The notes below the pieces were generated by a model. That model saw nothing but the letters and a program-made list of their open reading frames with translations, had not been told where the DNA came from and did not search any database. Shown here piece after piece: positions 1,050 to 26,664 of a stretch of 61,909 nucleotides of DNA. Made by a program: the position numbers and the translations under genes. The DNA comes from an uncultured Candidatus Saccharibacteria bacterium (GTDB lineage Bacteria; Patescibacteriota; Minisyncoccia; 2-02-FULL-40-12; GWA2-44-9): positions 564-62,472 of the forward strand of contig CAZZGH010000001.1 of the NCBI GenBank assembly GCA_964653875.1. Direction: 5' to 3'. Within the stretch, counting starts at the first letter, position 1; the number at the start of each line of letters is the position of its first letter.

Positions 1050-2744
1050 ATGATCATACTGGGAACCTTGACCTATTCACACGACACTTCAGCGGCGATT
1101 ATTAAAGACGGCCGGTTGCTTTATGCTGCCGAAGAAGAAAGATTTAACAGAAAAAAACACACCACCGACTTTCCGCATAACGCAATCAGGGCCTGTCTTG
1201 ACTTTGCAAAAATCAAAATGAAAGATATTGATGTCATTTGTGTACCCACTGACCCGGTTAGTCATATCCGCCTTAGGTTTATACGGCATTGGTTTAATTA
1301 CTACCCGCAGGTCGCCCCAAGAATGCTTGAAGAGTTTAAGTGGATAAGCAGAATAATTGATATTGAAAAAGATATAAGAGAAAATTTAGACTTTACGGAA
1401 AAAATATTTTTCTGCCGCCATCATGTTGCTCACATGGCAAGCGCTTATTATCTTTCAGGGTTTTCTCACAGCGCACTATTGAGTATTGACGGGGTTGGTG
1501 AAATTGAAAGCTTAATGACAGGCCAAGCTAAAGATAATCTCATTCGGACATTTGAAAGAAATAATGTTGATTGGCCAAATTCTCTAGGGGTACTTTATAC
1601 GTGTATTACCGAGTGGTTAGGATTTAAACGCCACTGTGACGAGGGCAAGGTGATGGGTTTGGCTCCCTATGGCAACGTAGAGACCTATCAAGAGATTTTT
1701 GAAGACATGGTCACCCTTCTGCCAAACGGCATGTTTGCGTTTGATTTTAGCTATTTTGATTATCCGTTCATTCAAGGATCTACAATGTCAGCCAAGTTTA
1801 CCGAACTTTGCGGTCCACCACGAAAGCCAACCGAGGATATCACCCAAAGGCACCGAGATATTGCTGCTGCCGTTCAATATATAACCGAAAGAGTTATGCT
1901 TCATAGTGCCAACCACCTGTACCGACAAACTAAAGAAAAAAACATATGTTTAGCCGGCGGAGTTGCCTTAAATTGTGTTGCTAATGGAAAAATATTAACC
2001 GAAACGCCTTTTGAAAAAATATTTATCCAACCAGCAGCTAATGATGCCGGCATCGGATTAGGTGCAGCTCTTTATTACCATTATCTCAAAAACCCGCAAG
2101 GTGAACGACAAAAAATGATAAATGCTTATCTTGGAAATGGCTATTCCGATCAGGAGATTGAAAAACTTCTAGATAGGGCTGGGCTGAAGTATGAGAAAGT
2201 AGAAAATATTTTTCCAAGAGTGGCAAGTCTATTAGAACAACAAAAAATTGTCGCTTGGTTTAGTGGACGTTCAGAATTCGGACCTCGCGCTTTAGGAAAC
2301 CGCTCAATTCTTACCGCTCCCTTCCCCGCTGAAATGAAAGATGTCTTAAACTCAAGGGTTAAGCACCGTGAGAGTTTCAGGCCATTTGCTCCGGTCGTCT
2401 TAGAAGAACGTTGCGGCGAATATTTTGACAATACGCACGAATCTCCCTACATGCTCCTGACTTATGGCGTAAAAGAAGACAAAAGAAACAAAGTGCCGGC
2501 CATTACTCACATCGACGGAACAGCTAGAGTCCAAACAGTGAACAGAGAACAAAACAATGAACTTTATTGGCTAATTCATGAATTTGGAAAATTAACCGGC
2601 GTTCATGTTGTTTTGAATACATCATTCAATGTCATGGGCCAGCCAATCGTGAACACTCCGGATGAAGCTATCGACTGTTTCTTGGGAACAGATATCGACT
2701 ATCTTGTCCTAAACGCTAAATATCTTTTGTCTAAAAGATCATAA
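1050..2744 (+). CDS. carbamoyltransferase (NodU/CmcH/TobZ family)
   Basis: 564 aa. The N-terminus ILGTLTYSHDTSAAIIKDGRLLYAAEEERFNRKKH and the C-terminal ...THIDGTARVQTV...NTSFN are typical of Carbam_trans_N/C proteins. Confidence 0.85.
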   Translation: MIILGTLTYSHDTSAAIIKDGRLLYAAEEERFNRKKHTTDFPHNAIRACLDFAKIKMKDIDVICVPTDPVSHIRLRFIRHWFNYYPQVAPRMLEEFKWISRIIDIEKDIRENLDFTEKIFFCRHHVAHMASAYYLSGFSHSALLSIDGVGEIESLMTGQAKDNLIRTFERNNVDWPNSLGVLYTCITEWLGFKRHCDEGKVMGLAPYGNVETYQEIFEDMVTLLPNGMFAFDFSYFDYPFIQGSTMSAKFTELCGPPRKPTEDITQRHRDIAAAVQYITERVMLHSANHLYRQTKEKNICLAGGVALNCVANGKILTETPFEKIFIQPAANDAGIGLGAALYYHYLKNPQGERQKMINAYLGNGYSDQEIEKLLDRAGLKYEKVENIFPRVASLLEQQKIVAWFSGRSEFGPRALGNRSILTAPFPAEMKDVLNSRVKHRESFRPFAPVVLEERCGEYFDNTHESPYMLLTYGVKEDKRNKVPAITHIDGTARVQTVNREQNNELYWLIHEFGKLTGVHVVLNTSFNVMGQPIVNTPDEAIDCFLGTDIDYLVLNAKYLLSKRS

Positions 2745-2748
2745 CCTT

Positions 2749-2772
2749 AACTGCCCTTTTCGGCAGTTTTTT
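2749..2772 (+). terminator. rho-independent terminator
   Basis: CTGCC-cttttc-GGCAG followed by TTTTTT. Confidence 0.65.
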
Positions 2773-2808
2773 ATCCCTCACCATTCAGAAAGGTGAGGGA
2801 TTTTATTT
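2773..2808 (+). terminator. second tandem terminator hairpin
   Basis: 10-bp stem ATCCCTCACC/GGTGAGGGAT, 9-nt loop, T-rich tail. Confidence 0.6.
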
Positions 2809-2835
2809 GACTAGCACATAAAAATTTTGTATACA
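2807..2835 (+). promoter_or_regulatory. promoter: TTGACT, 17-nt spacer, TATACA
   Basis: -35 at 2807-2812. -10 at 2830-2835, or alternatively TACAAT at 2832-2837. Confidence 0.5.
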
Positions 2836-2869
2836 ATACGCAAAGAACCTTAATAACTAGGGAGGCTGA

Positions 2870-4054
2870 ATGAGCACCACAAGTCCTAAATATCCTCTGG
2901 CCGGTGACACAATTGACCATCAAGATATTGAAAATGTAATTACCTGGTTAAGAACTTCGCCAAGATTAACAATGGATGAAATGACTAAGCAGTATGAAAA
3001 TAAATGGACGGAATGGTTGGGAAGAAAGTTTGCTCTTTTCTGTAATTCCGGATCCTCGGCCAATCTTCTTATGTACTATGCCCTTCTTTGCTCCAGTAAA
3101 TTAATGAATAAAAAGGTTATTGTTCCAAGTGTAGGTTGGGTAACAACGATTGCTCCGGCTATTCAATTTGGTTTTGAAGCTATCATGTGCGAAGCAGATC
3201 CGGAAACATTCGGATTGGACCTGAACCACCTAGAAGAATTGCTTAAAAAGCACCATCCTGCCACGGTAATGCTTGTCCAAGTTCTTGGAATACCTCATAA
3301 AATGGATGAGGTTTTAGCCCTGAAAAATAAATACGGATTTATTCTATTGGAAGATGCTTGCGCTTCTGTGGGTTCAAGTTACAAAGACCAAAAGGTCGGA
3401 ACATTCGGAGATATGTCCAGTTTTTCTACTTATTACGGCCACCAGTCCCCGACCGTTGAGGGAGGACTTGTCTTTACTGACGACCAAGAGTTCCATAACA
3501 TTTTGGTAATGATCAGAAGCCATGGCTGGGGCCAGCATTTGGACTCCGAGACCTACAACAGAATCTTCAACAAGTACAATATTGATACCGCCCATCGGCC
3601 ATTTGCTTTCTTCTACCCGGGATTTAATGTCCGGCCCACTGATATACAAGCGTTCATCGGCTTAGGACAATTAGACAAGCTGGGGTGGACAATCAGGCGA
3701 AGGGCAGAAAATCATGAACTTTACCGACAGTTGCTAAGCAGCCATTTTTACACTCAAAATTACGACAAGAACTCCATGGTCTCAAGTATCCATTTCGCCA
3801 TCTTAGCCAAGGATTCAACCGAAAGAGACAAGATTGCCAATGCCCTGACGGAGAACAGCATAGAAACAAGATTATACTCCGCCGGCAATCTTGGCCTCCA
3901 TCCTTTCTGGTATGACAATTATGGCAAATTTACCGCACCCATGGCTACCAGAATTTATAATTGCGGACTTTTTCTTCCTAATAATCCGTCCCTTAATCAG
4001 GGGGATATAAAATTTATATCGGACGTAGTTTTAGCAAGTGTGGAGGCGAATTAA
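2870..4054 (+). CDS. PMP-dependent NDP-4-keto-6-deoxyhexose 3-dehydratase (ColD/E1 (RfbH/DdhC)-like, DegT fold)
   Basis: YPLAGDT..., SGSSANLL, VPSVGWVTT, LLEDACASVG and PGFNVRP match the ColD/E1 pattern. The active-site motif is FSTYYGHQSPTVEGG, with His where aminotransferases carry the Schiff-base Lys. Confidence 0.8.
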   Translation: MSTTSPKYPLAGDTIDHQDIENVITWLRTSPRLTMDEMTKQYENKWTEWLGRKFALFCNSGSSANLLMYYALLCSSKLMNKKVIVPSVGWVTTIAPAIQFGFEAIMCEADPETFGLDLNHLEELLKKHHPATVMLVQVLGIPHKMDEVLALKNKYGFILLEDACASVGSSYKDQKVGTFGDMSSFSTYYGHQSPTVEGGLVFTDDQEFHNILVMIRSHGWGQHLDSETYNRIFNKYNIDTAHRPFAFFYPGFNVRPTDIQAFIGLGQLDKLGWTIRRRAENHELYRQLLSSHFYTQNYDKNSMVSSIHFAILAKDSTERDKIANALTENSIETRLYSAGNLGLHPFWYDNYGKFTAPMATRIYNCGLFLPNNPSLNQGDIKFISDVVLASVEAN

Positions 4055-4076
4055 TTAACAAAAAAATTTATCTGAT

Positions 4077-4106
4077 TATCGGCCGTATCCTCGGTCGATT
4101 TTTATT
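4077..4106 (+). terminator. rho-independent terminator
   Basis: ATCGGCCG-tatcct-CGGTCGAT (one G-U pair), followed by TTTTATTT. Confidence 0.55.
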
Positions 4107-4113
4107 TCAACAA

Positions 4114-4142
4114 GTTGACAAAGCTCTTTTTATAACATATGT
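4114..4142 (+). promoter_or_regulatory. promoter: TTGACA, 17-nt spacer, TATGTT
   Basis: Consensus -35 at 4114-4119, 17-nt spacer. Confidence 0.5.
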
Positions 4143-4180
4143 TTTTAGACGATTGAACCTTTACAATTACAGAGGAAAAA

Positions 4181-6028
4181 ATGAAACAGAGAGTCAGCGA
4201 TTATATCCTTGATTTTTTGGCAGATCATGACATTAAAGAAGTGTTTGAGGTTTATGGAGCAGCTAATGCAAATCTCATCGATGCTTTTACCCGTACTGAA
4301 AGGATCCGATATATCGCTACGATGCATGAGCAGGCTGCAGGCTTCGCTGCCGAAGGGTATGCAAAAGTAAGTCACAAGCCGGGCGTAGTTATTGCCACAA
4401 GCGGTCCTGGTGCACAAAATTTGCTCACACCTATCGGTAACTGCTTTTACGACTCCGTCCCCTGTCTTTTTTTGGTAGGCCAGATCAAATCACAATTCAT
4501 ACGCCCTGACCCGTCCGTAAGACAGGTTGGTTTTCAGGAAACTCCCATTGTTGAAATTGTTTCCTCAATAACTAAATATGCCAAACAGGTCCGCAACGCT
4601 AAAGATATTAAGTATGAACTTGAAAAAGCATGGTTCCTCTGCCAAGAAGGCAGACCCGGACCAGTTCTGCTCGATATGCCGATTGATGTTCAAAAAGAAG
4701 AAATCGATCTTAATGAGCTTCATGGTTTTGATCCGGAAATAAAAAAAACCGCATATGACACGCATTTGATTAATAGCCAAATAGATAACTTCCTCGAAGA
4801 CATAAGAAAAAGCAAGCGGCCAGTTATATTGGTTGGCGGAGGAGTGTGGATAGCCAACGCCGTCCAAGAACTTCTGGCAGCAGCAAAGGAACTAAAAATT
4901 CCCTGCCTGCCAACATTTAACGCTCTCGATGTGGTAACATCCGATTTCGAGTTCTATGGCGGACGGATCGGCACAAACGGTAGCCGAGCCGGCAATTTTG
5001 CTCTCCAAAATTCAGATCTTCTCCTTGCTATTGGTTGCCGTATTTCAGGAAGAATCACCGGAGGCAACCTTCATTCTTTTGCCAGAGAAGCAAAAAAATA
5101 TGTAGTAGATGTTGATCCGGCACTCCTTCAAAGAAAACTTCAGCAGATTCCGTTTGACGTTAACATCCGCTGTGATGCCAAAATATTTTTACAAACCTTG
5201 CTTGTAAAATTGCAAAGAGAATATTTTGCCTTAAGATACCGAAATAGTGATCACCCTCACAGCTGGTGGATGGATAAGGTTAATAAATGGAAACAAATGT
5301 ACCATCCGACCAAAGAAGAGCTCTTTTGCCGAAAAACAGATACGGTCAACCCATTTGTTTTCATGAAAAAGTTATCTGATCAGATGAAACCAGATGACAT
5401 TTTTGTTTACGACTGCGGAGGTAACGTTATTATTACGAATGCGATATTTGAAACCAAGCAGGGCCAGAGATTTATCACCAACAACGGCAATTCGCCAATG
5501 GGTTTTTCTTTTGCCGGAGCTATGGGGGCATGGTTTGCTTCTGATAAGAAAAAACAAAATGTGGTCTGCGTTATTGGTGACGGCGGATTTAACATGAATA
5601 TTCAGGAAATCCAAACTTGTATTAATTATGGTATCGGAATAAAAGTTTTTATTCTGAATAACCACATCTACGGCATTACCAAGTCTTTCCAGATAACTAA
5701 TTTCGGAGGCCGAATGGAAGCTTGTGGTCCAAAGGGCTATAGTCCGCCAGATTTTAGAAAGGTAATTGGACTCGGTTATGAAGCACCGCTGGAAGTAGTA
5801 GACAACGACGAAGAGGTTGAAGAAAAGATAAAAAAGGTCCTTAATTCAGACGGACTTATTTTCTGCGATATAAACTGCCACGAATGGCATTCGTATGGCC
5901 CTAAAATCATCGGCTGGAACACTCCGATTGAAGATATGTTTCCCTACCTGCCGAGAGATGAATTTAAAGAACAAATGATGATTGACCTTGTGCCCGGCTG
6001 GGAAAACCCGTTCACTTCAGTTGAATAA
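4181..6028 (+). CDS. thiamine-diphosphate-dependent enzyme, acetolactate-synthase-large-subunit/YerE-like
   Basis: 615 aa. N-terminal TPP_enzyme_N pattern (HEQAAGFAAEGYAK...SGPGAQNL) and ThDP-binding motif GDGGFNMNIQE...NN. Confidence 0.8.
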   Translation: MKQRVSDYILDFLADHDIKEVFEVYGAANANLIDAFTRTERIRYIATMHEQAAGFAAEGYAKVSHKPGVVIATSGPGAQNLLTPIGNCFYDSVPCLFLVGQIKSQFIRPDPSVRQVGFQETPIVEIVSSITKYAKQVRNAKDIKYELEKAWFLCQEGRPGPVLLDMPIDVQKEEIDLNELHGFDPEIKKTAYDTHLINSQIDNFLEDIRKSKRPVILVGGGVWIANAVQELLAAAKELKIPCLPTFNALDVVTSDFEFYGGRIGTNGSRAGNFALQNSDLLLAIGCRISGRITGGNLHSFAREAKKYVVDVDPALLQRKLQQIPFDVNIRCDAKIFLQTLLVKLQREYFALRYRNSDHPHSWWMDKVNKWKQMYHPTKEELFCRKTDTVNPFVFMKKLSDQMKPDDIFVYDCGGNVIITNAIFETKQGQRFITNNGNSPMGFSFAGAMGAWFASDKKKQNVVCVIGDGGFNMNIQEIQTCINYGIGIKVFILNNHIYGITKSFQITNFGGRMEACGPKGYSPPDFRKVIGLGYEAPLEVVDNDEEVEEKIKKVLNSDGLIFCDINCHEWHSYGPKIIGWNTPIEDMFPYLPRDEFKEQMMIDLVPGWENPFTSVE

Positions 6029-6032
6029 AATT

Positions 6033-6054
6033 AAACCCCGATTCGGGGTTTTTA
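6033..6054 (+). terminator. rho-independent terminator
   Basis: AAACCCCG-att-CGGGGTTT followed by a T-run. Confidence 0.65.
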
Positions 6055-6057
6055 TTA

Positions 6058-6086
6058 TTGACTAAGACTAACACAATAAGTATATT
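6058..6086 (+). promoter_or_regulatory. promoter: TTGACT, 17-nt spacer, TATATT
   Basis: -35 at 6058-6063 and -10 at 6081-6086. Confidence 0.5.
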
Positions 6087-6127
6087 GAGCCTAATCTGTT
6101 ATTTAAAACAAGGATCCAGAAGATTCC

Positions 6128-8200
6128 ATGAGACGAAAAGTAACGGTCGGTTTGTGCCAAATAAATGCCGGCTTTTCCGGCGCCAATTATCTTCCATATT
6201 CAGCAGGAATCTTGGAGGTATTTGCTCAAAAGAATATTCCGAATATCGATGACTTTCATTTTCTGCCCTATATATTTACTCGCGAATCAGTAGATTCGGC
6301 TGTGAAAAAACTTTTACCCGCAGATGTTGCGTGTTTTAGCCTTTATGTTTGGAATGACCAATTAGCCCGCAGAATAGCCAAAGAACTGAAAAAAATAAAA
6401 CCTGAAATCATTATCGTTGTCGGCGGTCCTCATGTGCCAGATAAATACAAATCTCATATTCAGAATAAACAAGCCACGCTTAAATGGGAAAATCCGAAGA
6501 AAACCGGTCAAGATATAATTGACCCCGCACTAGAAAGAACACAAACCTATTTAAGGGAAAATAATTATATTGACATCGCTGTCCATGGTGAAGGAGAAAG
6601 GCCTTTTTCAATTCTGCTCCAAAATCTATACGGCGACTGGAAAGAAATTCCTTCAATAAGTTTTTTAGATCGAGATGGCTTTATTGTCCAGACCGAAAGA
6701 ATCCCACGCTTAAAAGATCTTGACGAGGTACCTTCTCCATATCTTGAAGGAACTTTTGATTCTATTATCAAAGCATATCCGGACATGGAATGGATTACGG
6801 TTTGGGAGACAAATCGCGGATGTCCGTTTTCCTGTACATTTTGCGACTGGGGTTCAGCTATAGCGTCCAAAATAAATAAGTGGAAAATTGAAAGAGTTTA
6901 TCAAGAAATAGATTGGTTTGCAAAACATAACGTCCAGTTTATTTTTCTCGCTGACGCAAACTTCGGGATTTTGCCTCGTGATATAGAAATAGCCAAATAC
7001 TGCGCCGAAGTGAAAAGAAAGACCGGCCGTCCCAATACGATCACGGTTTCGAATACCAAAAATGCCACCGATCGGTCTTATCAGGTTCAAAAAATATTTG
7101 CCGACGCCGGCCTTGCTGCCGGAGCATCGCTATCAATGCAATCTTTAGATCCTCAAACCCTGAAAGATATAAAAAGAGATAATATCAACCTTGACTCATA
7201 CAGGGAAATTCAACGGCGAATGAAGGAGGATGGTATTTCAGCTTTTACTGATATTGTTCTTGGCTTGCCCGGAGAAACATATGACTCGTTCGCTAATGGT
7301 ATCGATGAACTTATTAGAAGTGGTCTTCATGATCGGGTTCTCTTCTATAATCTTACGATCCTGCCCAATGCCGAGATGGCCGACCCAAGTTATCAAAAAT
7401 TACATGGAATGGAGACAGTAAAAATGAGAAGTGTAAACATTCACGGCAGCAGAAAAGAAATAGAAGGAGACGTTCCTGAAGTGCAGGAGGTGGTAATCGC
7501 GACCAAAACAATGCCCAAAGAGGACTGGGTCCGGGTCTGTGTTTTTAGATGGACTTCAGCATTTCTACACTTTGATAAAATACTTCAGATTCCCCTTGTT
7601 CTCACGCATGAAATTACCGGAGCAAGTTATCGCGAATTGATAGAACTGTTTTCTGAAGACAATATTAAGAAAGCTGAAGAATTTCCCATACTAAACAGGG
7701 TGAGACAATTCTTCGTTGCTAAAGCGCAATCAATTCAGCGCGGAGAAGAAGAATTTTGTCATTCGCCAAAATATATTGATGTACGATGGCCATCTGATGA
7801 ATACATGCTCATTGATTTAGCCATTAACGGCGATCTTCCAGCATTCTATCAAGAAGCATACAGAACCTTGGAATCATTATCGGTTAAATATGGCAAAAGT
7901 GAGAATTTAGACGCAATAAAAGAAGCAGTGCAGCTTAACCAGGATATGTTAAAATTGCCATTCCGTGCCGATAGTCAGGATCTGTTGCTTTCATATAACA
8001 TTTGGGAATTCTATCACGCAGCAATTCGAGGTAAACCCATTCCCTTAGAAAAACACCGTGCTGTCATCACTATAGATTATGAGAGCGAGAAATGGAATTC
8101 ATGGGAAGATTGGTGCCGACAAGTTGTCTGGTACGGCAGTAAGCGCAGTGCTTATCTTTATGGAAACAAAGCTGTCGTTCAAATTGCGGGACATTTCTAA
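6128..8200 (+). CDS. cobalamin (B12)-binding radical SAM enzyme, long form (690 aa), paralog A
   Basis: N-terminal B12-binding Rossmann-like region (FSLYVWN...IIIVVGGPHVPD), the CX3CX2C cluster motif GCPFSCTFCDW, and a ~300-aa C-terminal extension ending AYLYGNK..QIAGHF. Confidence 0.8.
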   Translation: MRRKVTVGLCQINAGFSGANYLPYSAGILEVFAQKNIPNIDDFHFLPYIFTRESVDSAVKKLLPADVACFSLYVWNDQLARRIAKELKKIKPEIIIVVGGPHVPDKYKSHIQNKQATLKWENPKKTGQDIIDPALERTQTYLRENNYIDIAVHGEGERPFSILLQNLYGDWKEIPSISFLDRDGFIVQTERIPRLKDLDEVPSPYLEGTFDSIIKAYPDMEWITVWETNRGCPFSCTFCDWGSAIASKINKWKIERVYQEIDWFAKHNVQFIFLADANFGILPRDIEIAKYCAEVKRKTGRPNTITVSNTKNATDRSYQVQKIFADAGLAAGASLSMQSLDPQTLKDIKRDNINLDSYREIQRRMKEDGISAFTDIVLGLPGETYDSFANGIDELIRSGLHDRVLFYNLTILPNAEMADPSYQKLHGMETVKMRSVNIHGSRKEIEGDVPEVQEVVIATKTMPKEDWVRVCVFRWTSAFLHFDKILQIPLVLTHEITGASYRELIELFSEDNIKKAEEFPILNRVRQFFVAKAQSIQRGEEEFCHSPKYIDVRWPSDEYMLIDLAINGDLPAFYQEAYRTLESLSVKYGKSENLDAIKEAVQLNQDMLKLPFRADSQDLLLSYNIWEFYHAAIRGKPIPLEKHRAVITIDYESEKWNSWEDWCRQVVWYGSKRSAYLYGNKAVVQIAGHF

Positions 8201-8222
8201 AGACGCTTAAGCGTCTTTTTTG
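8199..8222 (+). terminator. rho-independent terminator
   Basis: AGACGC-ttaa-GCGTCT followed by TTTTTT. Confidence 0.7.
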
Positions 8223-8233
8223 TTCCCTTTTAG

Positions 8234-8262
8234 TTGACCAAAGAAAAATTTAACCGTATAGT
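8234..8262 (+). promoter_or_regulatory. promoter: TTGACC, 17-nt spacer, TATAGT
   Basis: -35 at 8234-8239 and -10 at 8257-8262. Confidence 0.5.
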
Positions 8263-8295
8263 TTCCAAATTGCGTTCATTAAAAATAAGGGAAAA

Positions 8296-9114
8296 ATGAC
8301 AGATATCAGTTACTTGACTCGACAAGCAAAAACAGCCAGGAAGCTGATATTGGATATGATATTTAAAGCCAAGTCGTCCCATCTTGGCTGCGCACTTTCT
8401 GTTACCGATATATTAACAGCATTATATTTTGGAGACATCCTTAAAATTGACCCCGAAAATCCAAATTGGGAAAACAGGGACAGATTCATATTGAGCAAAG
8501 GCCACGCCTGCGTAGCTCTATATGTCACTTTGGCGTTAAGGGGCTATTTCCCGTTTGAGAAACTAAAGGAATATGGCACCAACGGTACCCTGATTAGCGA
8601 CCATAATACCCTTGGATCTTTGCCAGGAATTGAAACGACCAATGGCTCCTTAGGTCATGGTCTGCCGCTTGGTATAGGAATGGCATTAGCCGAAAAAAAC
8701 GCAAGAAGGCCATCAAGAATATTTGTTTTGGTCGGAGACGGCGAGCTTCAGGAGGGTTCAAACTGGGAAGCATTAATGTTCGCTGGATTCCATAGATTAA
8801 ACAATTTAATCCTCATTATTGATAACAATAATCTTGAGACACTCGGACCAACCGACAAAATCCTTAGCCTCGCTACTATTCATAAGAAGTTGGAAAGCTT
8901 TGGATGGGATGCAGAAAATATTTCGGGGCATTGTTTTGCTGAAATTATCGGCCGGTTAAATATAAAACACGAAAAACCTTTTGCTCTGAATTGCCACACA
9001 ACAAAAAGCAAAGGCATTTCTTTTATGGAGGGCGACTACATCTGGCATGGCAAATGTCCGACCAAAGAAGAATATGAGAGGGCCAAAAAAGAATTGAGCG
9101 GAGAATTGCAATGA
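8296..9114 (+). CDS. transketolase, N-terminal (ThDP-binding) subunit
   Basis: SKGHACVALY, GSLGHGLPLGIGMA, VLVGDGELQEGSNWEA. The ATGA overlap with the next gene indicates a split TktA/TktB-type arrangement. Confidence 0.85.
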   Translation: MTDISYLTRQAKTARKLILDMIFKAKSSHLGCALSVTDILTALYFGDILKIDPENPNWENRDRFILSKGHACVALYVTLALRGYFPFEKLKEYGTNGTLISDHNTLGSLPGIETTNGSLGHGLPLGIGMALAEKNARRPSRIFVLVGDGELQEGSNWEALMFAGFHRLNNLILIIDNNNLETLGPTDKILSLATIHKKLESFGWDAENISGHCFAEIIGRLNIKHEKPFALNCHTTKSKGISFMEGDYIWHGKCPTKEEYERAKKELSGELQ

Positions 9115-10037
9115 GATTTGAAGTCATTAAGACGATTTATAAAGCCGCGTTAGCCGACCCTAAGGTGGTTTTTCTAACCGGTGATCTGGGCCATGCCCAC
9201 TTAGATGATTTCAAAGAAAATTTACCCGGCCAATATTTTAATGTTGGTATTGCCGAACAAAACATGATAGGCATTGCTGCCGGACTTGCTCTTTCAGGAC
9301 ATAGGGTATTTGCTTATTCAATTGCTCCATTTGTAACCTTGCGGTGTCTTGAACAAATTAAGGTGGATATTTGTTATCAGAATGTCGGGGTTGTAGTTAT
9401 CGGAGTGGCTGCTGGTTATGCTTATTCTACATGCGGATGCACTCACCACGCAATTGAAGATATTGCGGCCATGAAAGCATTGCCGAATATGCAAATATAT
9501 TCGCCATCTAATCCGTTTGAGGGGCGCTTAATTACAGAGTATTTAATAAAAGCATCTCATCCTGCATACCTTCGCATTGGCAAAGGCGGGGAACCAAATG
9601 CCAAAAAAGAATACGATTTGAAAATTGGAAAAGGATTAGTTGTTAAGCCCGGCAAAGACATAACCATATTTGCCACCGGCACAGTTGTAAATGAGGCTGT
9701 TGCCGCAAGCAATATTTTGGAGCAACACGGAATCAGTACAGAGGTGATAAATATACACACCATAAAACCTTTGGATAAAGAACTTATTGAAAAAACGGCC
9801 CGAACAAAAGACGCGATATTTGTCTTAGAAGAACACAACATCATCGGCGGGCTTGGAGAAAGTGTGGCAAGAGTCATTTGCGAATGTGGCGGAAACAAGA
9901 AACCGATTTTCCGATGTCTAGGTATTCCCGATGAATATAATCATCGTGTCGGATGCCATCAATATATGTTAAGCTGTTACGATCTAAACGCAGAAGCAGT
10001 TGCTAGAAAAGTTATGAATCTATATCAAGCCCCCTAA
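9111..10037 (+). CDS. transketolase, C-terminal (pyrimidine-binding) subunit
   Basis: FNVGIAEQNMIGIAAGLA, plus a C-terminal domain with IHTIKPLD. Translationally coupled to 8296-9114. Confidence 0.85.
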   Translation: MRFEVIKTIYKAALADPKVVFLTGDLGHAHLDDFKENLPGQYFNVGIAEQNMIGIAAGLALSGHRVFAYSIAPFVTLRCLEQIKVDICYQNVGVVVIGVAAGYAYSTCGCTHHAIEDIAAMKALPNMQIYSPSNPFEGRLITEYLIKASHPAYLRIGKGGEPNAKKEYDLKIGKGLVVKPGKDITIFATGTVVNEAVAASNILEQHGISTEVINIHTIKPLDKELIEKTARTKDAIFVLEEHNIIGGLGESVARVICECGGNKKPIFRCLGIPDEYNHRVGCHQYMLSCYDLNAEAVARKVMNLYQAP

Positions 10038-10050
10038 CGGGGCTTTTTTG
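10028..10050 (+). terminator. rho-independent terminator overlapping the stop codon
   Basis: AGCCCC-ctaac-GGGGCT followed by TTTTT. Confidence 0.6.
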
Positions 10051-10079
10051 TTGACAGAAACCGCAAAAAAATACATAAT
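10051..10079 (+). promoter_or_regulatory. promoter: TTGACA, 17-nt spacer, CATAAT
   Basis: Lies immediately after the terminator. Consensus -35. Confidence 0.55.
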
Positions 10080-10114
10080 ACACGCCAAGAACTTTGAAAT
10101 TGGGGTAAAAAAAT

Positions 10115-10915
10115 ATGGACCTCAACCTTAGAGGAAAAACCGCACTTATTACCGGTTCAAGTCAGGGTATAGGCAAAGCATGCGCTATCGCTTTAGCCAA
10201 AGAGGGATGCAATGTCCTTTTATGTGCACAGAATGCTTCTAAGTTAAGAAGGGTTTATGTGAAAATTGAGGAAATGTATTCCAACATTAATGGAAACTGG
10301 GCAACAGTTGATGCGACTTCTCAAGAGAGTGTTAAGAACCTTTTGAGCCAGATTCATTGTCTTGATATCCTTGTAAATAATGTCGGCGGCGGAACTGGTA
10401 AACCCCTCGGTCTTTTTGAAATAAAGGAGGATGAATGGTTGAAAATATATCAACTGAATGTTTTAAGTATGATCTGGTTTACCAAGTACGCCCTGCCCTT
10501 ACTGGAAGCATCATCGCAAGCAAGAATTATCAACATTAGCAGCGCCACCTCTCATCAGCCGGGATTATACAATCCTCATTATGGAGCGGCAAAATCTGCT
10601 ATGGATTTTCTGACAAAGCGCATGGCTAACGAGCTTGCACCGAAAAGAATTTGCGTCAACGCAATCGGTCCCCATGCCGTTCTTTGTGAGAATTGGGAAA
10701 GAGATGTCCGGGATCGCGCAGAAACCTGCAAAATATCGCTAGAGGAGGCACGGACAATAATGACCGAAGAGGTTAATGCCAAAATACCGATGAACAGGCA
10801 AGGAACATCTGAAGATGTTGCCAATTTGGTGGTCTATTTAGCTTCCGCTCAAGCCAACTTTATTACCGGCACCTACATTCCGGTGGACGGCGGCACCCTA
10901 AAGGCGCGGCCATGA
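10115..10915 (+). CDS. short-chain dehydrogenase/reductase (SDR)
   Basis: TGSSQGIGKA glycine-rich loop, NNVG, and the catalytic S...YGAAK motif. Confidence 0.8.
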   Translation: MDLNLRGKTALITGSSQGIGKACAIALAKEGCNVLLCAQNASKLRRVYVKIEEMYSNINGNWATVDATSQESVKNLLSQIHCLDILVNNVGGGTGKPLGLFEIKEDEWLKIYQLNVLSMIWFTKYALPLLEASSQARIINISSATSHQPGLYNPHYGAAKSAMDFLTKRMANELAPKRICVNAIGPHAVLCENWERDVRDRAETCKISLEEARTIMTEEVNAKIPMNRQGTSEDVANLVVYLASAQANFITGTYIPVDGGTLKARP

Positions 10916-11913
10916 AATACAGACCGCTGGGAACTTCTGGAATTATGGTATCGGAAATAGGATTTGGCGGATGGGGTATCGGCGGAGCGACAGAAGGCGC
11001 CACCTCATATGGACCAACTGATGATAACGAATCAATAAGGGCTCTGGAAACAGCCTTTGATCAAGGAATAAATTTCTACGATACTGCGGGTGTCTACGGC
11101 AAAAGTGAAGAGTTAATAGGTAGGGTTTTTAAACACCGGCGAGGCCAAGTGGTTATTGGAACCAAAGTGGGATTTCTGGAGCATCATACCCCGCAAGATT
11201 TTTCTAGAAGAAATATTATCGCCACGCTCCAAAGAAGTTTAAAAAACCTGGACACGGATTATATTGATCTTCATCAACTCCACAACCCAGACATTCAAAA
11301 ATTACCCATGGCTGAAATCATAGACGCCTTAAAAGAATTGAAAACTCAAGGACTGGTTAGGGCGTTAGGTATTTCAGTCAAACACCCCGACCACGGTTTA
11401 GTGGCACTAGGATACGAAGAGTTTGATTCTATTCAAGTCAATCTAAGTATGATTGACCAACGAGCCGTTGATAATAAACTCTTGGTATTAGCCGAGAGAT
11501 TAGGCACAGGAATTATCGCGCGTACGCCTCTGAATTTCGGTTTCCTTACCGATAATGGAAAGACAATGGATCTGAATTTCGGCCCACAGGATCATAGGTC
11601 GGTTTGGCCCATCAAACAGAGAGAAGCATGGCAAAAAGCCGCTCGATTGTTAGCAGAAGTCCACACAGAAGATTCTTTAGCTATTTTGGCTCTTCGTTAT
11701 TGTTTAAGCGTTAAAGGGGTAAGTACTGTCATTCCTGGCATGCTTACCGTAAATGATGTTTTGGCGAATACTGCCGCAAAAGGACTGACAGCCTTGAGCC
11801 ATGAAACAATGAATAGAATTAAACGGGTATATAATGAGAATGGTCAGTTTTTTGTTAGACCGGGCCAAAGCAATAGCCAGGAGTTGTTTTATCCGGCTAA
11901 TGATATGGCCTAA
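10912..11913 (+). CDS. aldo/keto reductase
   Basis: GFGGWGIGG, INFYDTAGVYG, YIDLHQLHNPD and a C-terminal VIPGM motif. ATGA overlap with the SDR gene. Confidence 0.8.
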   Translation: MKYRPLGTSGIMVSEIGFGGWGIGGATEGATSYGPTDDNESIRALETAFDQGINFYDTAGVYGKSEELIGRVFKHRRGQVVIGTKVGFLEHHTPQDFSRRNIIATLQRSLKNLDTDYIDLHQLHNPDIQKLPMAEIIDALKELKTQGLVRALGISVKHPDHGLVALGYEEFDSIQVNLSMIDQRAVDNKLLVLAERLGTGIIARTPLNFGFLTDNGKTMDLNFGPQDHRSVWPIKQREAWQKAARLLAEVHTEDSLAILALRYCLSVKGVSTVIPGMLTVNDVLANTAAKGLTALSHETMNRIKRVYNENGQFFVRPGQSNSQELFYPANDMA

Positions 11914-11930
11914 AGCACTAAAATAAATTA

Positions 11931-11960
11931 AAAACCTCCAATTACTATGGGAGGTTTTTT
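11931..11960 (+). terminator. rho-independent terminator
   Basis: AAACCTCC...GGAGGTTT hairpin followed by TTTTTT. Confidence 0.6.
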
Positions 11961-11968
11961 GATTATTA

Positions 11969-11997
11969 TTGTCAAAAGACACATTTTGATGTATAAC
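11969..11997 (+). promoter_or_regulatory. promoter: TTGTCA, 17-nt spacer, TATAAC
   Basis: -35 at 11969-11974 and -10 at 11992-11997. Confidence 0.45.
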
Positions 11998-12031
11998 TAC
12001 CCCTAAGAACCTTAATAATTAAGGGGTGCAT

Positions 12032-14179
12032 ATGAGTTCAAAAATAATTCCCCTTACGATAAGAGCCGAAAGTCCTCCACCGACTTCAATTGTTTTAAAA
12101 CCAAAAAACAAGTTAAAAATAGGGCTTGTCCAGCTTAATAACAGCTTTTCCGATCAGAATTATTTTCCCCAGTCTGTGGGAATGATTCAAGCCTATGCTC
12201 AAAAATACCTGACCCATGCTGAAGACTATGACTTTCTTTTGCCACTTTTTACTTTTATGCCGATTGACGAGGCAATAGATAAGTTAAGCGATGCCCATGT
12301 TCTGGCCATTAGTCTTTATGTTTGGAATTTTGAAAATTCTATGGCCATAGCCAAAGAATTTAAGAGACGATACCCAGAACGGTTAGTCATCGTTGGTGGA
12401 CCTCATGTACCTGATAGCAAAAAACAATTTGCCAGAATAAAAAAAAGCGACCCCAAACCGGATGATCTTAAGCGTAAAAGAATGGGCATGACTGAAAAAT
12501 TTCATCAGGATAATCCTTATATTGATACTGCTGTTCATGGCGAGGGCGAAAGAGTGTTCAAAATGATTTTAGAGCAGGTGCCGGACAGCCTTGCCAATAA
12601 AAGCCGGATTCCCTCAATAAGTTATCTCGATTCGAATGGAACTTTTCATCATAATCCCAAACTTGAACGTATGCATGATTTGTCTGAAGTTCCTTCTCCA
12701 TATTTAGACGGGGTATTTGATACTCTTATGGCAGCTCATCCAGACCAAAAATGGATTGCGATGTGGGAAACTGATCGCGGCTGTCCTTATCAATGTACAT
12801 ATTGCGATTGGGGCGGTGCTATTGAAGATAAGATAAGCCTTTTTCCGCTTGATCGCATCACAAAAGAAACTTGGTGGTTCGCAGAAAGAAAAGTCCCCTA
12901 CATCTTTATCGCTAACGCCAACTTCGGACTTCCTAAACAGGATGTGCAAATTGCAAGAGTCCTGGCTGAAGTTAAAAAGGCTACTGGATATCCCGAAGGC
13001 GTATCTGTACAGAATGCAAAGAACCCCAAACCCCACACGTTAGAAGCTCTGAAAATTCTTCAAGAAGCCGGACTGAACAAGGCAACCGTAATGTCCATCC
13101 AGTCAAAAAATCGCGAAACCCTTGAAGCTGTTCGCCGACAAAACATGAAACCGGAAGAATATCAAATAATCCAAAAAGAACTAAGGGCTCAGGGTGTTTA
13201 CACAATGACTGATTACATCATTCCGATGCCCATGGAAACATACCAAAGCGTATTAGAAGGTGTTTCAAAAATTATTGAAGATGGACAACATGACAGAATT
13301 CAGTTTAATAATCTTTCCATATTGCCTAACGCAGAAATGGGCGATCCGGAATATCAAGAAGAATATGGAATGGAAATGGTTAGGACGCCAATAACGAACA
13401 TCCATGGCAAGAAAAATGCATCCATTAGCAGCATTGAAGAATACCAAGAACTTGTCATCGCAACCAGCACCATGTCTCGAGAAGAATGGATTAAAACTCG
13501 CTCATTCTGCTATGTGGTAGGGCTTATTTATTTCAACAAGCTCCTACAGATACCAATAATGATCCTGCATGAAGTTTATGGAATACCCTATCAAAAAATA
13601 TTTGAAGTATTTATGGAAACCCCAAGACGATCTAACAAATTTCCTGTTTTCGCCGAGTTGCTAGACTTCTTTGAGGAATTCTCTCGAGGCATTCAAAATG
13701 GTACAAACGAAGAGTTTTACCATTCTAAGGAGTGTCTCAATATTCTATGGCCTCCGGACGAATATGCATTTATAAAGATATGCAGAGAAGGAAAATTTGG
13801 TCAATTTTACGAAGAGGCATTGGCGATGATGACGAACCTCGTAAGTTCAAACCAATCTGCTGAACCGCTACTAGATGCGGTGAAGCTTAACAAATCCTTG
13901 ATAAAACTGCCGTTTCAAACTACTGATTTAGAAATGGCCTTATCTTATAATATTTGGGAGGTTTATAAGGCCGCACTTATTGAACAAGAGTTGGAACTTA
14001 AAAAAGGCATACATAATTATTCTGTTGACAGAACGACAAAATCAGATTCTGCAAACACTAACGCGAGATGGGACTCATGGGAAGAATGGTATGAAAAAAT
14101 GGTCTGGTGGTGCAACCGCCGAGGAGCATATCTCTATGGAAATAAAAATCCGCACACAGAGATTGCCGGTCATCACTAA
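12032..14179 (+). CDS. cobalamin (B12)-binding radical SAM enzyme, long form (~715 aa), paralog B
   Basis: Collinear with 6128-8200 (ISLYVWN...LVIVGGPHVPD, GCPYQCTYCDW, C-terminal AYLYGNK..EIAGHH). ATG at 12032 is preferred: AAGGGG lies 5 nt upstream, whereas the ORF track starts at GTG 12026. Confidence 0.8.
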   Translation: MSSKIIPLTIRAESPPPTSIVLKPKNKLKIGLVQLNNSFSDQNYFPQSVGMIQAYAQKYLTHAEDYDFLLPLFTFMPIDEAIDKLSDAHVLAISLYVWNFENSMAIAKEFKRRYPERLVIVGGPHVPDSKKQFARIKKSDPKPDDLKRKRMGMTEKFHQDNPYIDTAVHGEGERVFKMILEQVPDSLANKSRIPSISYLDSNGTFHHNPKLERMHDLSEVPSPYLDGVFDTLMAAHPDQKWIAMWETDRGCPYQCTYCDWGGAIEDKISLFPLDRITKETWWFAERKVPYIFIANANFGLPKQDVQIARVLAEVKKATGYPEGVSVQNAKNPKPHTLEALKILQEAGLNKATVMSIQSKNRETLEAVRRQNMKPEEYQIIQKELRAQGVYTMTDYIIPMPMETYQSVLEGVSKIIEDGQHDRIQFNNLSILPNAEMGDPEYQEEYGMEMVRTPITNIHGKKNASISSIEEYQELVIATSTMSREEWIKTRSFCYVVGLIYFNKLLQIPIMILHEVYGIPYQKIFEVFMETPRRSNKFPVFAELLDFFEEFSRGIQNGTNEEFYHSKECLNILWPPDEYAFIKICREGKFGQFYEEALAMMTNLVSSNQSAEPLLDAVKLNKSLIKLPFQTTDLEMALSYNIWEVYKAALIEQELELKKGIHNYSVDRTTKSDSANTNARWDSWEEWYEKMVWWCNRRGAYLYGNKNPHTEIAGHH

Positions 14180-14186
14180 AATTATA

Positions 14187-14214
14187 AATCTGAGATAAAT
14201 TCTCAGATTTTTTA
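14187..14214 (+). terminator. rho-independent terminator
   Basis: 9-bp stem AATCTGAGA/TCTCAGATT, 5-nt loop, T-run. Confidence 0.7.
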
Positions 14215-14300
14215 TTGGATACTTACGCTTGTACAAAGGTAAAATTTATGGTAAAAACTTAAACAATCTCGTTCCTTAAAACAGAAAAGAGGGTGCAACG

Positions 14301-15275
14301 TTGAAAGCATTAATCACGGGAATTGCCGGTTCCGGAGCCAGCTATTTGGCCGAATACATCATTGCCAATAAGCCTTCGGTTGAATTACACGGCACAATCC
14401 GCTGGCATAGCACTGTTTCCCAAAAAAATATTGAGGCAATTCATGGAAAAGCAATCATCCACGACTGCGATCTAAACGATCCGATGGCCGTTTGCCGTTT
14501 AATAAATGGAATAAAACCAGACACGATTTTCCATCTCGCATCTTACGCCAACGTAAGAAAGGCCTGGGACAATCCGGTTGGCGTTTTGCAAAATAATATC
14601 ATGAGTACGATATATCTTTTAGAAGCCGTCCGGTTAACTGGAATTAAACCCACAATTCAAATGTGCAGTACACCGGAAGTATATGGACAAGTTGACCCAA
14701 AAAATATTCCTATCGATGAAAACTGCCCGATTAACCCCAACAATCCCTACGCTGTTTCAAAGTACGCCCAGGAGTCGCTGGGATATTCTTATTTTAAAGG
14801 TCATAGTTTACCGATAATCATAACCAGAATGTCTACTTACATAAACCCGCGCCGAGAGGATCTATTTGCCACATCTTTTGCCATGCAAGTGGCCAGAATA
14901 GAAGCCGGCCTGCAAAAAGAATTGCTTCATGGTAATTTGGATTCTACAAGAACAATCCTCGACGCTAGAGATTGCGCTAGTGCTTACTGGGTAGCTATGG
15001 AAAAAGGTGAGCCCGGAGAGGCCTATAATATCGGCGGTAATAAAGTTGTAACCGTTGGAGAGTTTTTGGAAATCCTGAAAAAGAAAACCCGCTGTTCCAT
15101 TCCCTCCAAAGTGGACGAAGGACTGCTCCGTCCCGTGGATGCCACTTTGCAAATAATTAATACAGAAAAATTCTTTAAACAGACCGGCTGGCAACCCGTA
15201 TATGACTTTGAAGAAAGCATAGGATTTCTTCTTGAACATTGCCGTAAAAAAATTAGCCACGAAACCCCGCGATAA
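14301..15275 (+). CDS. NAD(P)-dependent sugar dehydratase/reductase of the Gmd/Rmd branch of extended SDRs
   Basis: TTG start. N-terminus ITGIAGSGASYLAEYII resembles the Gmd [12 protein letters not shown] motif. Also has NPYAVSK (YxxxK) and a degenerate INPRRED in place of NHESPRRGE. Confidence 0.65.
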   Translation: MKALITGIAGSGASYLAEYIIANKPSVELHGTIRWHSTVSQKNIEAIHGKAIIHDCDLNDPMAVCRLINGIKPDTIFHLASYANVRKAWDNPVGVLQNNIMSTIYLLEAVRLTGIKPTIQMCSTPEVYGQVDPKNIPIDENCPINPNNPYAVSKYAQESLGYSYFKGHSLPIIITRMSTYINPRREDLFATSFAMQVARIEAGLQKELLHGNLDSTRTILDARDCASAYWVAMEKGEPGEAYNIGGNKVVTVGEFLEILKKKTRCSIPSKVDEGLLRPVDATLQIINTEKFFKQTGWQPVYDFEESIGFLLEHCRKKISHETPR

Positions 15276-15290
15276 ACGGGGCTTTTATTT
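15264..15290 (+). terminator. rho-independent terminator overlapping the stop codon
   Basis: CCCCG-cgataaa-CGGGG followed by CTTTTATTT. Confidence 0.55.
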
Positions 15291-15313
15291 ATATCGGGGT
15301 TATGATAGTTTTT

Positions 15314-15370
15314 AGGGTAGCAGGATTAGAAAAATTATAAAATAGATAACTTTATTAATCCTACTACCCT
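15314..15370. repeat. 15-bp inverted repeat (14/15 paired) with a 27-nt AT-rich loop, ending 3 nt before the ATG at 15374
   Basis: AGGGTAGCAGGATTA (15314-15328) against TAATCCTACTACCCT (15356-15370). Confidence 0.8.
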
Positions 15371-15373
15371 TTT

Positions 15374-22704: not shown

Positions 22705-22741
22705 TTAAAGATAAAATTAAAACCGCTTTAAGCGGTTTTTT
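22705..22741 (-). terminator. rho-independent terminator for fcl (stop codon lies in the loop)
   Basis: ACCGC-tttaa-GCGGT flanked by A- and T-runs. On the minus strand it is followed by UUUUAAUUUUAU. Confidence 0.6.
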
Positions 22742-26598: not shown

Positions 26599-26664
26599 TG
26601 TCAAAGTGCCTCGGACAATTTATCTTCAAATTAGAGTACCAAAAAAATATTCCGAAAACAACCC

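Follow-up and report, generated by a model that had tools for sequence, protein, structure and literature searches.

A candidate pathway to a branched, C-methylated deoxysugar in a glycan locus of an uncultured Candidatus Saccharibacteria bacterium

What kind of sugar would a bacterium assemble with a deoxygenating dehydratase, two thiamine diphosphate (ThDP) enzymes for carbon-carbon bonds, two radical S-adenosylmethionine (SAM) enzymes that depend on cobalamin, a set of reductases and a carbamoyltransferase? The question is raised by ten adjacent genes at positions 1050-15275 of a 61,909-nucleotide stretch of DNA (hereafter the window) from an uncultured Candidatus Saccharibacteria bacterium (assembly GCA_964653875.1, contig CAZZGH010000001.1, positions 564 to 62,472). 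The window is a single glycan-biosynthesis locus of 36-46% GC within which no tRNA or Rfam elements were found, and eleven genes at 1050-16459 share one orientation on the forward strand, ten of them within 1050-15275. These ten open reading frames had been listed with their families in a preliminary description made from the sequence alone; all are present, and Pfam, NCBIfam and PDB sequence searches agree on the family calls and confirm them. The balance of the evidence tips modestly towards a ten-gene set that makes a guanosine diphosphate (GDP)-linked 3,6-dideoxy-4-C-branched sugar, C-methylated, reduced and O-carbamoylated, for the cell surface; that all ten enzymes would act on one sugar is a reading of their families and of the linkage of their genes.

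Deoxygenation at C3 is predicted for the product of 2870-4054 (+), a DegT-fold protein whose best PDB match is ColD (2gms, 3e-57), E1 matching at only 2e-36. Its His191 shares an alignment column with ColD His188, a YYGHQ motif lying opposite S-H188-H of ColD; the column was fixed by the ColD mutant entries 3b8x and 2r0t (H188N and H188K), which differ there only. Histidine at this position, that of the Schiff-base lysine, is kept in 76 of 76 His-type homologues from 160 related loci. No E1-type iron-sulfur cysteine motif occurs in the protein, which has five scattered cysteines and no CxC, and no ferredoxin-reductase-type (E3) gene is present in the window annotation. Because ColD is the closest homologue, His191 falls in the His188 column and the iron-sulfur cysteine motif is missing, the protein is classed as a predicted ColD-type, reductase-independent 3-dehydratase of nucleotide-linked 4-keto-6-deoxy sugars. 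The earlier proposal of a pyridoxamine 5'-phosphate (PMP)-dependent 3-dehydratase with histidine in place of lysine is therefore supported, with ColD rather than E1 as its subtype. The GDP-L-colitose pathway (Gmd, ColD and ColC) similarly combines Gmd with a ColD-type His 3-dehydratase acting on GDP-4-keto-6-deoxymannose, and ColD is the closest solved homologue; it differs in that no ColC-type terminal epimerase/reductase is evident beside the dehydratase gene of the window, where, in the proposal made here, a ThDP carboligase would take up the 4-keto product.

The putative carboligase is encoded at 4181-6028 (+), with the ColD-like gene immediately 5' of it. It is a three-domain ThDP enzyme that matches JanthE (8rph; 5e-86, 292 bits) and PpYerE (5ahk; 4e-76, 260 bits) ahead of the acetohydroxyacid synthases (AHAS) of plants (229 bits), yeast (206 bits) and E. 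coli (AHAS I, 196 bits), which range from 1e-67 to 1e-56, and its alignment with JanthE takes in the C-terminal extension, to residue 601. Entry 8rph is JanthE (PMC12188165), and JanthE and PpYerE are the two YerE-like ketone-accepting carboligases of known structure; no residue signature of ketone acceptance has been established (PMC12247030). YerE-like enzymes branch 3,6-dideoxy-4-keto sugars, on which a reductase acts next (PMC9306805, PMC12247030). The window protein scores under the cut-off of all 51 NCBIfam ThDP models, every AHAS model included (395 bits against a cut-off of 538 for the biosynthetic model TIGR00118), and no ilvN, ilvC or ilvD was found beside its gene. On the choice posed earlier between YerE and genuine IlvB, it stands nearer the YerE-like enzymes, and its identification as a YerE/JanthE-like carboligase, putatively donating an acyl branch to a keto sugar, is largely supported at family level.

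The company kept by this gene elsewhere points the same way as the YerE analogy of the preliminary description. Members from Nitrospira (including Ca. N. defluvii), Patescibacteria, DPANN archaea and Pelagibacteraceae (SAR11) share 55-65% identity, and Rhodospirillales and one Prochlorococcus single-cell genome have the enzyme as well. A count of neighbour types out to 8 kb from the ThDP gene, made over 80 genome loci, gave a ColD-like gene in 55, an extended short-chain dehydrogenase/reductase (SDR) in 64, an aspartate (Asp)-aminotransferase-like gene in 53, a B12 radical SAM gene of about 540 amino acids (aa) in 51, an HddA-like GHMP kinase in 48 and a ManC/HddC-like nucleotidyltransferase in 44. 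The nearest described system is the route to yersiniose A in Yersinia pseudotuberculosis (DdhA-D, YerE and YerF) with its erwiniose, caryophyllose and gastriose relatives, which shares with the window the order of a 4,6-dehydratase, a PMP 3-dehydratase, ThDP-dependent acyl addition at the C4 ketone and reduction by NAD(P)H, as well as a predicted destination in cell-surface glycan (PMC9306805, PMC12247030). Unlike that pathway, in which an E1/E3 pair works on a cytidine diphosphate (CDP)-sugar, the window encodes a 3-dehydratase of ColD type (GDP, no iron-sulfur cluster, no E3 reductase) and a ThDP enzyme from a distinct, tightly conserved clade nearest JanthE, and to these come a pair of TokK-like B12 radical SAM methylases, a split transketolase (TK) of non-canonical type, an aldo-keto reductase (AKR) and a carbamoyltransferase, none of which is known from any described branched-sugar pathway.

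Several features of the sister clusters concern the donor and the destination of such branches. An Asp-aminotransferase-like gene accompanies the YerE-like gene in L001 (16977-20397) and L002 (7282-8484), and L001 also has aspartokinase/homoserine dehydrogenase and aspartate-semialdehyde dehydrogenase genes by the YerE-like gene. There are hints here of a 2-oxo acid donor obtained in the sister clusters by amino-acid transamination, for example of homoserine to 4-hydroxy-2-oxobutanoate, a known donor of ErwE. In Nitrospira loci (L002, 11906-18274), the gene directly 3' of the YerE-like gene encodes a giant protein (1,750-2,180 aa) in which methyltransferase domains are combined with glycosyltransferase domains, and the Nitrospira clusters also have GT9 (heptosyltransferase-family) genes. 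These neighbours suggest attachment of the sugar to the lipopolysaccharide (LPS) core in Nitrospira.

The two radical SAM proteins, rSAM1 (6128-8200, +; about 690 aa) and rSAM2 (12026-14179, +; 717 aa), are paralogues that share 41% identity. Their family matches TokK (7kdx, 1.8e-91) and CysS (9n1b, 8e-61) in the PDB, and both proteins have B12-binding and Radical_SAM domains in Pfam (the B12 domain of rSAM2 at 26.9 bits against a cut-off of 32.1) and the cysteine motif of the superfamily (C232-x3-C236-x2-C239 in rSAM1, CxxxCxxC at 253-260 in rSAM2). On the KedN5 model of NCBIfam they reach 258 and 233 bits, respectively, against a cut-off of 700, and thus form a distinct subgroup. TokK and ThnK methylate C6 and then carry out further alkylations, and CysS methylates iteratively (PMC9358933, PMC12846815). 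The window enzymes are accordingly classed, as a prediction, as TokK/CysS-type iterative C-methylases; since their clade is one of iterative methylases, C-methylation is preferred to the rearrangement of unactivated carbons that had been offered beside it. Nor are the proteins giant, as they had been called: about 700 aa is usual for the TokK/CysS/KedN5 family, TokK itself having 681 aa. They resemble TokK and ThnK, which alkylate C6 of carbapenems, and CysS, which extends an alkoxy group in cystobactamid, in family, size, B12-binding domain and CxxxCxxC motif, and differ in lying among nucleotide-sugar and polysaccharide genes rather than in antibiotic clusters, in having an AKR partner and in being two paralogues. 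In the open-access literature searched, no relevant report was found of cobalamin radical SAM enzymes tied to nucleotide or polysaccharide sugars.

Between the TK genes and rSAM2 lie a classical SDR ketoreductase (10115-10915, +; Pfam adh_short, with TGSSQGIG and YGAAK motifs) and the AKR (10912-11913, +; Pfam Aldo_ket_red, 1e-60, with the D57/Y62/K84/H tetrad), the SDR gene overlapping that of the AKR. The TokK-like family has at least 570 confirmed metagenome matches, and neighbours were counted in the best 80 of these together with the related contigs L083 and L084, 82 loci in all. In 42-50 of the 82, the gene directly 3' of the radical SAM gene is an AKR orthologue (42-54% identity), which makes the AKR the habitual partner of this family, and the pairing suggests methylation followed by reduction. 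The pair is usually accompanied by sugar-activation genes and by some ThDP branching enzyme. Other neighbours in this comparison are extended SDRs (33 loci), a GHMP kinase of the type at 16490-17482 (27-32), a nucleotidyltransferase (23), a GmdL-type SDR (18-25), pyruvate dehydrogenase (PDH)-E1 beta-like and alpha-like genes (19 and 15), ColD/DegT genes (10-15) and a split TK (8-11).

The split TK-like enzyme consists of TKN (8296-9114, +; Pfam Transketolase_N), the ThDP-binding subunit with the pyrophosphate (PP) domain, and TKC (9111-10037, +), with the pyrimidine (Pyr) and C-terminal domains, and the two reading frames overlap by 4 nt. Their best PDB matches are the split TK of Carboxydothermus (6yak, 5e-63, for TKN; 6yaj, 4.5e-57, for TKC). 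The ThDP-binding half in TKN looks intact. The Pyr-domain loop of TKC reads VAAGYAYSTCGCTHH where canonical TK has THAGLTVGEDGASHQ, and the phosphate-binding arginine is replaced by lysine; measured against E. coli His461, Asp469 and Arg520, which serve acceptor and phosphate binding in the Pyr domain, THAG has become VAAG, GEDG has become STCG and RLGRS has become RIGKG, so that the canonical acceptor and phosphate residues are lost. Loss of the acceptor residues is common to all ten cluster-associated split TKs of related loci, and GEDG is missing from 148 of the 149 nearest family representatives of TKC. TKN and TKC thus belong, by their sequences, to a large non-canonical TK-like family and not to Tkt; the replaced loop, the Arg-to-Lys change and the synteny with radical SAM genes in five related contigs uphold the earlier view of a split transketolase outside housekeeping metabolism.

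In miharamycin and amipurimycin biosynthesis, the attachment of a hydroxyacetyl branch to a keto sugar has been assigned, as a proposal, to split TKs (PMC12247030), and by analogy a ketone may receive such a unit from the window enzyme. These enzymes and E1 alpha/beta pairs of AviB1/B2 or KbDH type are likewise ThDP enzymes of the TK/E1 superfamily in sugar clusters, with a keto sugar as the presumed acceptor (PMC12247030); the reported split TKs, whose role there is a proposal, all come from Streptomyces secondary metabolism, whereas that of the window lies in a glycan locus of the candidate phyla radiation (CPR) beside a YerE-like enzyme and has the loop signature STCGCTHH. That the TK-like enzyme supplies sedoheptulose-7-phosphate to a heptose route was also considered; the loss of its phosphate and acceptor residues and the lack of GmhA make this unlikely.

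Activation of the sugar and its final capping would involve three further genes. The carbamoyltransferase (1050-2744, +) carries both expected domains at full length (Pfam Carbam_trans_N, 1e-64, Kae1-like; Carbam_trans_C, 1e-71, YrdC-like) and matches solved relatives at 3e-104 to 1e-77 (7xb6 3e-104, GdmN 1e-100, TobZ 2e-78 and also NovN); the NodU equivalog model is not reached (195 against 1000 bits). Domains and relatives together confirm the family named in the preliminary description, a NodU/TobZ/GdmN-type O-carbamoyltransferase. At the other end of the set, GmdL (14301-15275, +) is an extended SDR of the GDP-sugar dehydratase/reductase group with STPE and YAVSK (YxxxK) motifs kept, and it falls under all NCBIfam cut-offs. 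Its matches to a 4,6-dehydratase of GDP-D-glycero-D-manno-heptose (7us5, 1.6e-45) and to the 4-reductase Rmd (2pk3, 5e-45) are of equal strength; the family first described therefore stands, and GmdL may be either a dehydratase or a reductase. Further along, gmd (36942-39188, -) encodes a GDP-mannose 4,6-dehydratase (Pfam GDP_Man_Dehyd, 2.8e-139, in two stretches) interrupted between FNHE and SPRRG by an insert of 389 aa with LAGLIDADG-like motifs, a TSSH block and the end VHN|S. These are hallmarks of an intein, as had been claimed, with Pfam support limited to a sub-threshold match (LAGLIDADG_3, E 2.8e-4).

The nucleotide is probably GDP, to judge from the ColD-type enzyme, the relatives of GmdL, an Fcl-like SDR (22728-23684), an HddA-like kinase, gmd itself and the ManC/HddC-like nucleotidyltransferases encoded in sister loci. 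Of the starting points first considered, a hexose carried by GDP (from GDP-mannose) or CDP (from CDP-glucose), GDP is hence the favoured carrier, and it may carry a heptose in place of the hexose. The pathways to GDP-6-deoxy-heptoses known from Campylobacter jejuni and Yersinia comprise HddA, HddC, GmhA/B, DmhA and DmhB; HddA is the nearest relative of the window's kinase, a heptose 4,6-dehydratase is, level with Rmd, nearest to GmdL, and the sister clusters, too, carry HddC/ManC-like guanylyltransferases and a GmhB-like haloacid dehalogenase (HAD) phosphatase. Set against this likeness, scores lie far under the equivalog cut-offs, and the heptose pathways are without ThDP or radical SAM enzymes.

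How far these genes form a set can be judged from five related contigs, in which rSAM1 is 57-80% identical. All five keep rSAM1-TKN-TKC-SDR-AKR-rSAM2, with identities across the block of 40-88%; the SDR gene comes after the TK genes in L083, L084 and L166, and the rSAM2 orthologues of L084, L165 and L166 are 50-70% identical. Co-occurrence in related genomes, which had been set as a check on the pathway, was therefore found for rSAM1, TK, SDR, AKR and rSAM2. Around this block, L084 and L165 carry a carbamoyltransferase (72% and 69% identity) and a ColD-like gene (85% and 68%) and have a PDH-E1 alpha/beta pair in place of the YerE-like gene. In L083 an E1 pair is joined by another split TK, making two, and L167 combines two split TKs with genes for a kinase, a nucleotidyltransferase and a phosphatase of GmhB-like type. 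In L166 (Logan SRR27458548), four YerE-like fragments lie at 11323-12382, directly 5' of TKN; they match by tblastn in different frames, are 66-80% identical to residues 124-572 of the window ThDP enzyme, and represent either a decayed gene or an assembly error. An Asp-aminotransferase and an E1 alpha gene were sought in the window and none was found.

Because YerE-like, E1-type and TK-type enzymes interchange in otherwise syntenic clusters, the comparison argues that they fill a single slot, the C-C branching of a keto sugar. The gene set is a mosaic of two widespread modules with an exchangeable YerE-like branching enzyme: one module comprises ColD, the YerE-like enzyme and the GHMP kinase and occurs in Nitrospira, CPR bacteria, DPANN archaea and SAR11, and the other comprises the TokK-like radical SAM enzyme, AKR, GHMP kinase and a guanylyltransferase and accounts for the metagenome matches counted above. 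The combination had been thought unlike any characterised pathway; it is not singular to the window, and the part of the claim that stands is the addition of radical SAM enzymes, TK and carbamoyltransferase, of which no description was found in the literature searched.

In the pathway proposed for the ten genes, the intein-bearing Gmd or GmdL would 4,6-dehydrate a GDP-hexose or GDP-heptose, and the ColD-type enzyme would strip the 3-hydroxyl by way of PMP, without an E3, to give a GDP-3,6-dideoxy-4-keto sugar. The YerE-like enzyme would then decarboxylate a 2-oxo acid and add the acyl anion to the C4 ketone, creating a tertiary alcohol that bears an acyl side chain, on which rSAM1 and rSAM2 would place at least one methyl group, at unactivated carbons and most plausibly so as to lengthen the side chain. 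Ketones of the side chain or ring would be reduced by the AKR and SDR in the manner of YerF, the split TK-like enzyme would make a second two-carbon transfer of hydroxyacetyl type, and the carbamoyltransferase would cap a hydroxyl before the sugar is installed by the neighbouring glycosyltransferase together with the GT-C-like membrane protein and an ATP-binding cassette (ABC) exporter. The scheme amounts to yersiniose-type logic moved to a GDP sugar, because GDP-type enzymes accompany the pairing of a ColD-type with a YerE-like enzyme (PMC9306805). Extension of the side chain by iterative methylation followed by YerF-like reduction is the most economical proposal that we can infer for the radical SAM and AKR genes. 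Its generalization is considerably more speculative, and we advance it as a conjecture with the chances against it: TokK-family enzymes would iteratively methylate an acyl chain that a ThDP enzyme has installed on a nucleotide sugar, the AKR would then reduce it, and alkyl-extended branched deoxysugars (of ethyl, isopropyl or tert-butyl type) would be displayed by many uncultured bacteria and archaea, the branching catalyst being exchangeable among YerE-like, PDH-E1-like and TK-like enzymes.

Several observations weigh against a single pathway of this kind. The two modules are mostly found apart: near the ThDP gene, a TokK-like radical SAM gene occurs in 4 of 82 loci, an AKR in 2, a carbamoyltransferase in 1 and a split TK in none, and reciprocally a YerE-like gene neighbours the TokK-like gene in 0 of 82. 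None of the five related contigs has an intact YerE-like gene, and L166, with fragments only, keeps the radical SAM/TK/SDR/AKR block, which is thus independent of the YerE-like enzyme. Co-transcription is not evident either, because each gap of 77-126 nt between genes (2745-15373) holds a GC-rich hairpin and T-run after the stop codon and, beyond these, a promoter of the TTGAC-17-TATAAT type and then a ribosome-binding site. Terminator-like sites number 31, as against 18.1 ± 4.9 in shuffled sequences, with one per gene boundary; each gene or overlapping pair looks like a self-contained transcription unit and not part of a tight operon, and such individually punctuated cassettes match the mosaic distribution and weaken the argument from an operon. 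As to the early steps, GmdL could be a reductase instead of a dehydratase, and the first residue of the gmd insert is Thr, not Cys or Ser, so that it may not splice. Moreover, no sugar-1-phosphate nucleotidyltransferase was found in the window (no Pfam NTP_transferase and no tblastn match with the sister-cluster enzymes), and the 62 kb contain no GmhA, GmhB or HddC; the lack of a nucleotidyltransferase, GmhA and GmhB makes both the starting sugar and the part played by the kinase less certain.

Much of this would be expected if the locus were a mosaic of cassettes making two or more sugars for one heteropolysaccharide, a 3,6-dideoxysugar branched by the ColD-type and YerE-like enzymes and another sugar made by the radical SAM enzymes, AKR, GHMP kinase and GmdL, with TK and SDR serving in either. 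The independence of the modules in most genomes, the terminator and promoter of each gene and the intact block of L166 beside a broken YerE-like gene speak for it, and the roughly 15 glycosyltransferases of the window would suffice for a complex repeat unit. This is nevertheless the less likely account, since some ThDP branching enzyme (an E1 pair, split TK or YerE-like enzyme) accompanies the radical SAM module in the five relatives and in many metagenome loci, ColD-like genes 60-85% identical occur in both contexts, and the genes of the window are interleaved rather than sorted by module. It is more doubtful still that the TK-like enzyme, SDR, AKR and one or both radical SAM enzymes build a functionalised 2-oxo acid or other donor that the YerE-like enzyme attaches in one step, as for erwiniose, caryophyllose and gastriose. 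ErwE and MyGE do take C4-C8 hydroxylated 2-oxo acids from cluster-encoded enzymes (PMC9306805), the Asp-aminotransferase-like gene of Nitrospira-type clusters could make a 2-oxo acid, the aspartokinase/homoserine dehydrogenase and aspartate-semialdehyde dehydrogenase genes of L001 adjoin its cluster, and the TK-like enzyme is without sugar-phosphate acceptor residues. The window, however, has no aldolase or aminotransferase for donor synthesis, the radical SAM-AKR pair is common without a YerE-like enzyme, and the known substrates of TokK-family enzymes are larger scaffolds, not small free acids (PMC9358933). The notion that the ThDP enzyme and transketolase are housekeeping IlvB and Tkt lying by chance near glycan genes is rejected as highly improbable: for all their strong similarity to AHAS large subunits and transketolase in Pfam and NCBIfam, the first is nearer JanthE and PpYerE than AHAS, falls short of every AHAS model, is without ilvN/ilvC/ilvD neighbours and belongs to a family that sits in sugar clusters of 80 genomes, and the second has a TKC without the acceptor His, GEDG and phosphate-binding Arg and is syntenic with radical SAM genes in five contigs. 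The one-sugar pathway is accordingly retained as the preferred reading.

The type of pathway to which it would belong is already known and has been mined in silico. ThDP-branched 3,6-dideoxysugars are reportedly made by a few pathogens, and about 200 more clusters are said to have been predicted in silico; we know of none among the predicted clusters that includes cobalamin radical SAM chemistry. In the literature searched, no description was found of TokK-type methylases, a non-canonical split TK and a carbamoyltransferase in such a pathway. Both modules are widespread in uncultured microbes and biochemically uncharacterised: that of the radical SAM enzyme, AKR, kinase and guanylyltransferase abounds in metagenomes from soil, groundwater and the sea (at least 570 matches), and that of the YerE-like and ColD-type enzymes is standard in Nitrospira and occurs also in CPR, DPANN, SAR11 and Prochlorococcus single-cell genomes. 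If the modules make C-methylated branched sugars, a large unrecognised share of environmental surface chemistry would need B12 and ThDP, TokK-type methylases would gain a new class of substrate, and new ketone-accepting carboligases would become available for tertiary-alcohol biocatalysis. The lineage of the host is not known to make cobalamin, and it is striking that a small-genome CPR bacterium devotes more than 60 kb to a locus with four B12 radical SAM genes; if the proposal is true, the surface chemistry of a B12-auxotrophic CPR organism would be tied to cobalamin scavenged from its community.

The block at 1050-15275 is real, and the functional unit runs on past the end first assigned to it. 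A glycosyltransferase on the forward strand and, on the reverse strand, the GHMP kinase, the GT-C-like protein, an O-methyltransferase-like gene and the ABC exporter remain linked to the block in related contigs. The glycosyltransferase (15374-16459, +) exceeds the cut-off of TIGR04440 (7.7e-44), in five loci the radical SAM-AKR module is flanked by one of its homologues (29-34% identity), and it is the probable transferase for the product. The kinase (16490-17482, -; Pfam GHMP_kinases_N/C) is an HddA/fucokinase-like anomeric sugar kinase by its NCBIfam match to HddA (1e-49, below threshold), and its orthologues (50-55% identity) are common to both modules, occurring in 56 of 82 ThDP-anchored and 32 of 82 radical-SAM-anchored loci. 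A PduX/CobD-like route in which this kinase, a nucleotidyltransferase and an aminotransferase would make a CDP-amino-alcohol was considered and rejected, the kinase being nearest HddA/fucokinase and the transferases nearest ManC/HddC.

The polytopic membrane protein of 662 aa at 17483-19471 (-) has no Pfam, NCBIfam or PDB sequence match. Its AlphaFold model (pLDDT 85.8, pTM 0.87) finds in Foldseek only GT-C enzymes among its top matches (AglB, Pmt4, STT3, ArnT and ALG12/9; E 7e-4 to 1e-2, TM 0.3-0.55), and the predicted fold is thus GT-C-like. The family has 32 members among 5.8 billion proteins, the named ones belonging to Ca. Yanofskybacteria (64% identity) and Ca. Taylorbacteria only, and its gene adjoins the GHMP kinase gene in L083, L165 and L166 and always does so in the lineage. 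By this lineage-restricted family, the host of the window is probably one of the Parcubacteria.

Elsewhere in the window are genes for some 15 glycosyltransferases of families GT4 and GT2, a DegT aminotransferase, FnlA/RmlD-like SDRs, the Fcl-like SDR, methyltransferases, Wzy_C-TPR and PMT-like membrane proteins, the ABC exporter and an HTH_17 gene (19478-19723). Two shorter B12-binding radical SAM genes of about 500-530 aa, both PhpK/HpnJ/Sden_1168-like below NCBIfam thresholds, lie among the glycosyltransferases at 25018-26604 (-) and 40520-42025 (+) and bring the cobalamin radical SAM genes of the locus to four.

Beyond the terminators and promoters, little is shared between the intergenic gaps. 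Apart from a direct repeat of 70 nt, the only similarity found among them spans 35 nt (2828-2862 and 11990-12024, 74%). The two copies of the 70-nt repeat (1-70 and 926-995) are 91% identical, end with a -35-like TTGACT and contain the perfect palindrome TTCCGAGCTTACTCGGAA, which is present twice in the window against 0.04 copies expected. The first precedes an orphan open reading frame of 207 aa (169-792) and the second the carbamoyltransferase gene, and the repeat may be a shared candidate operator.

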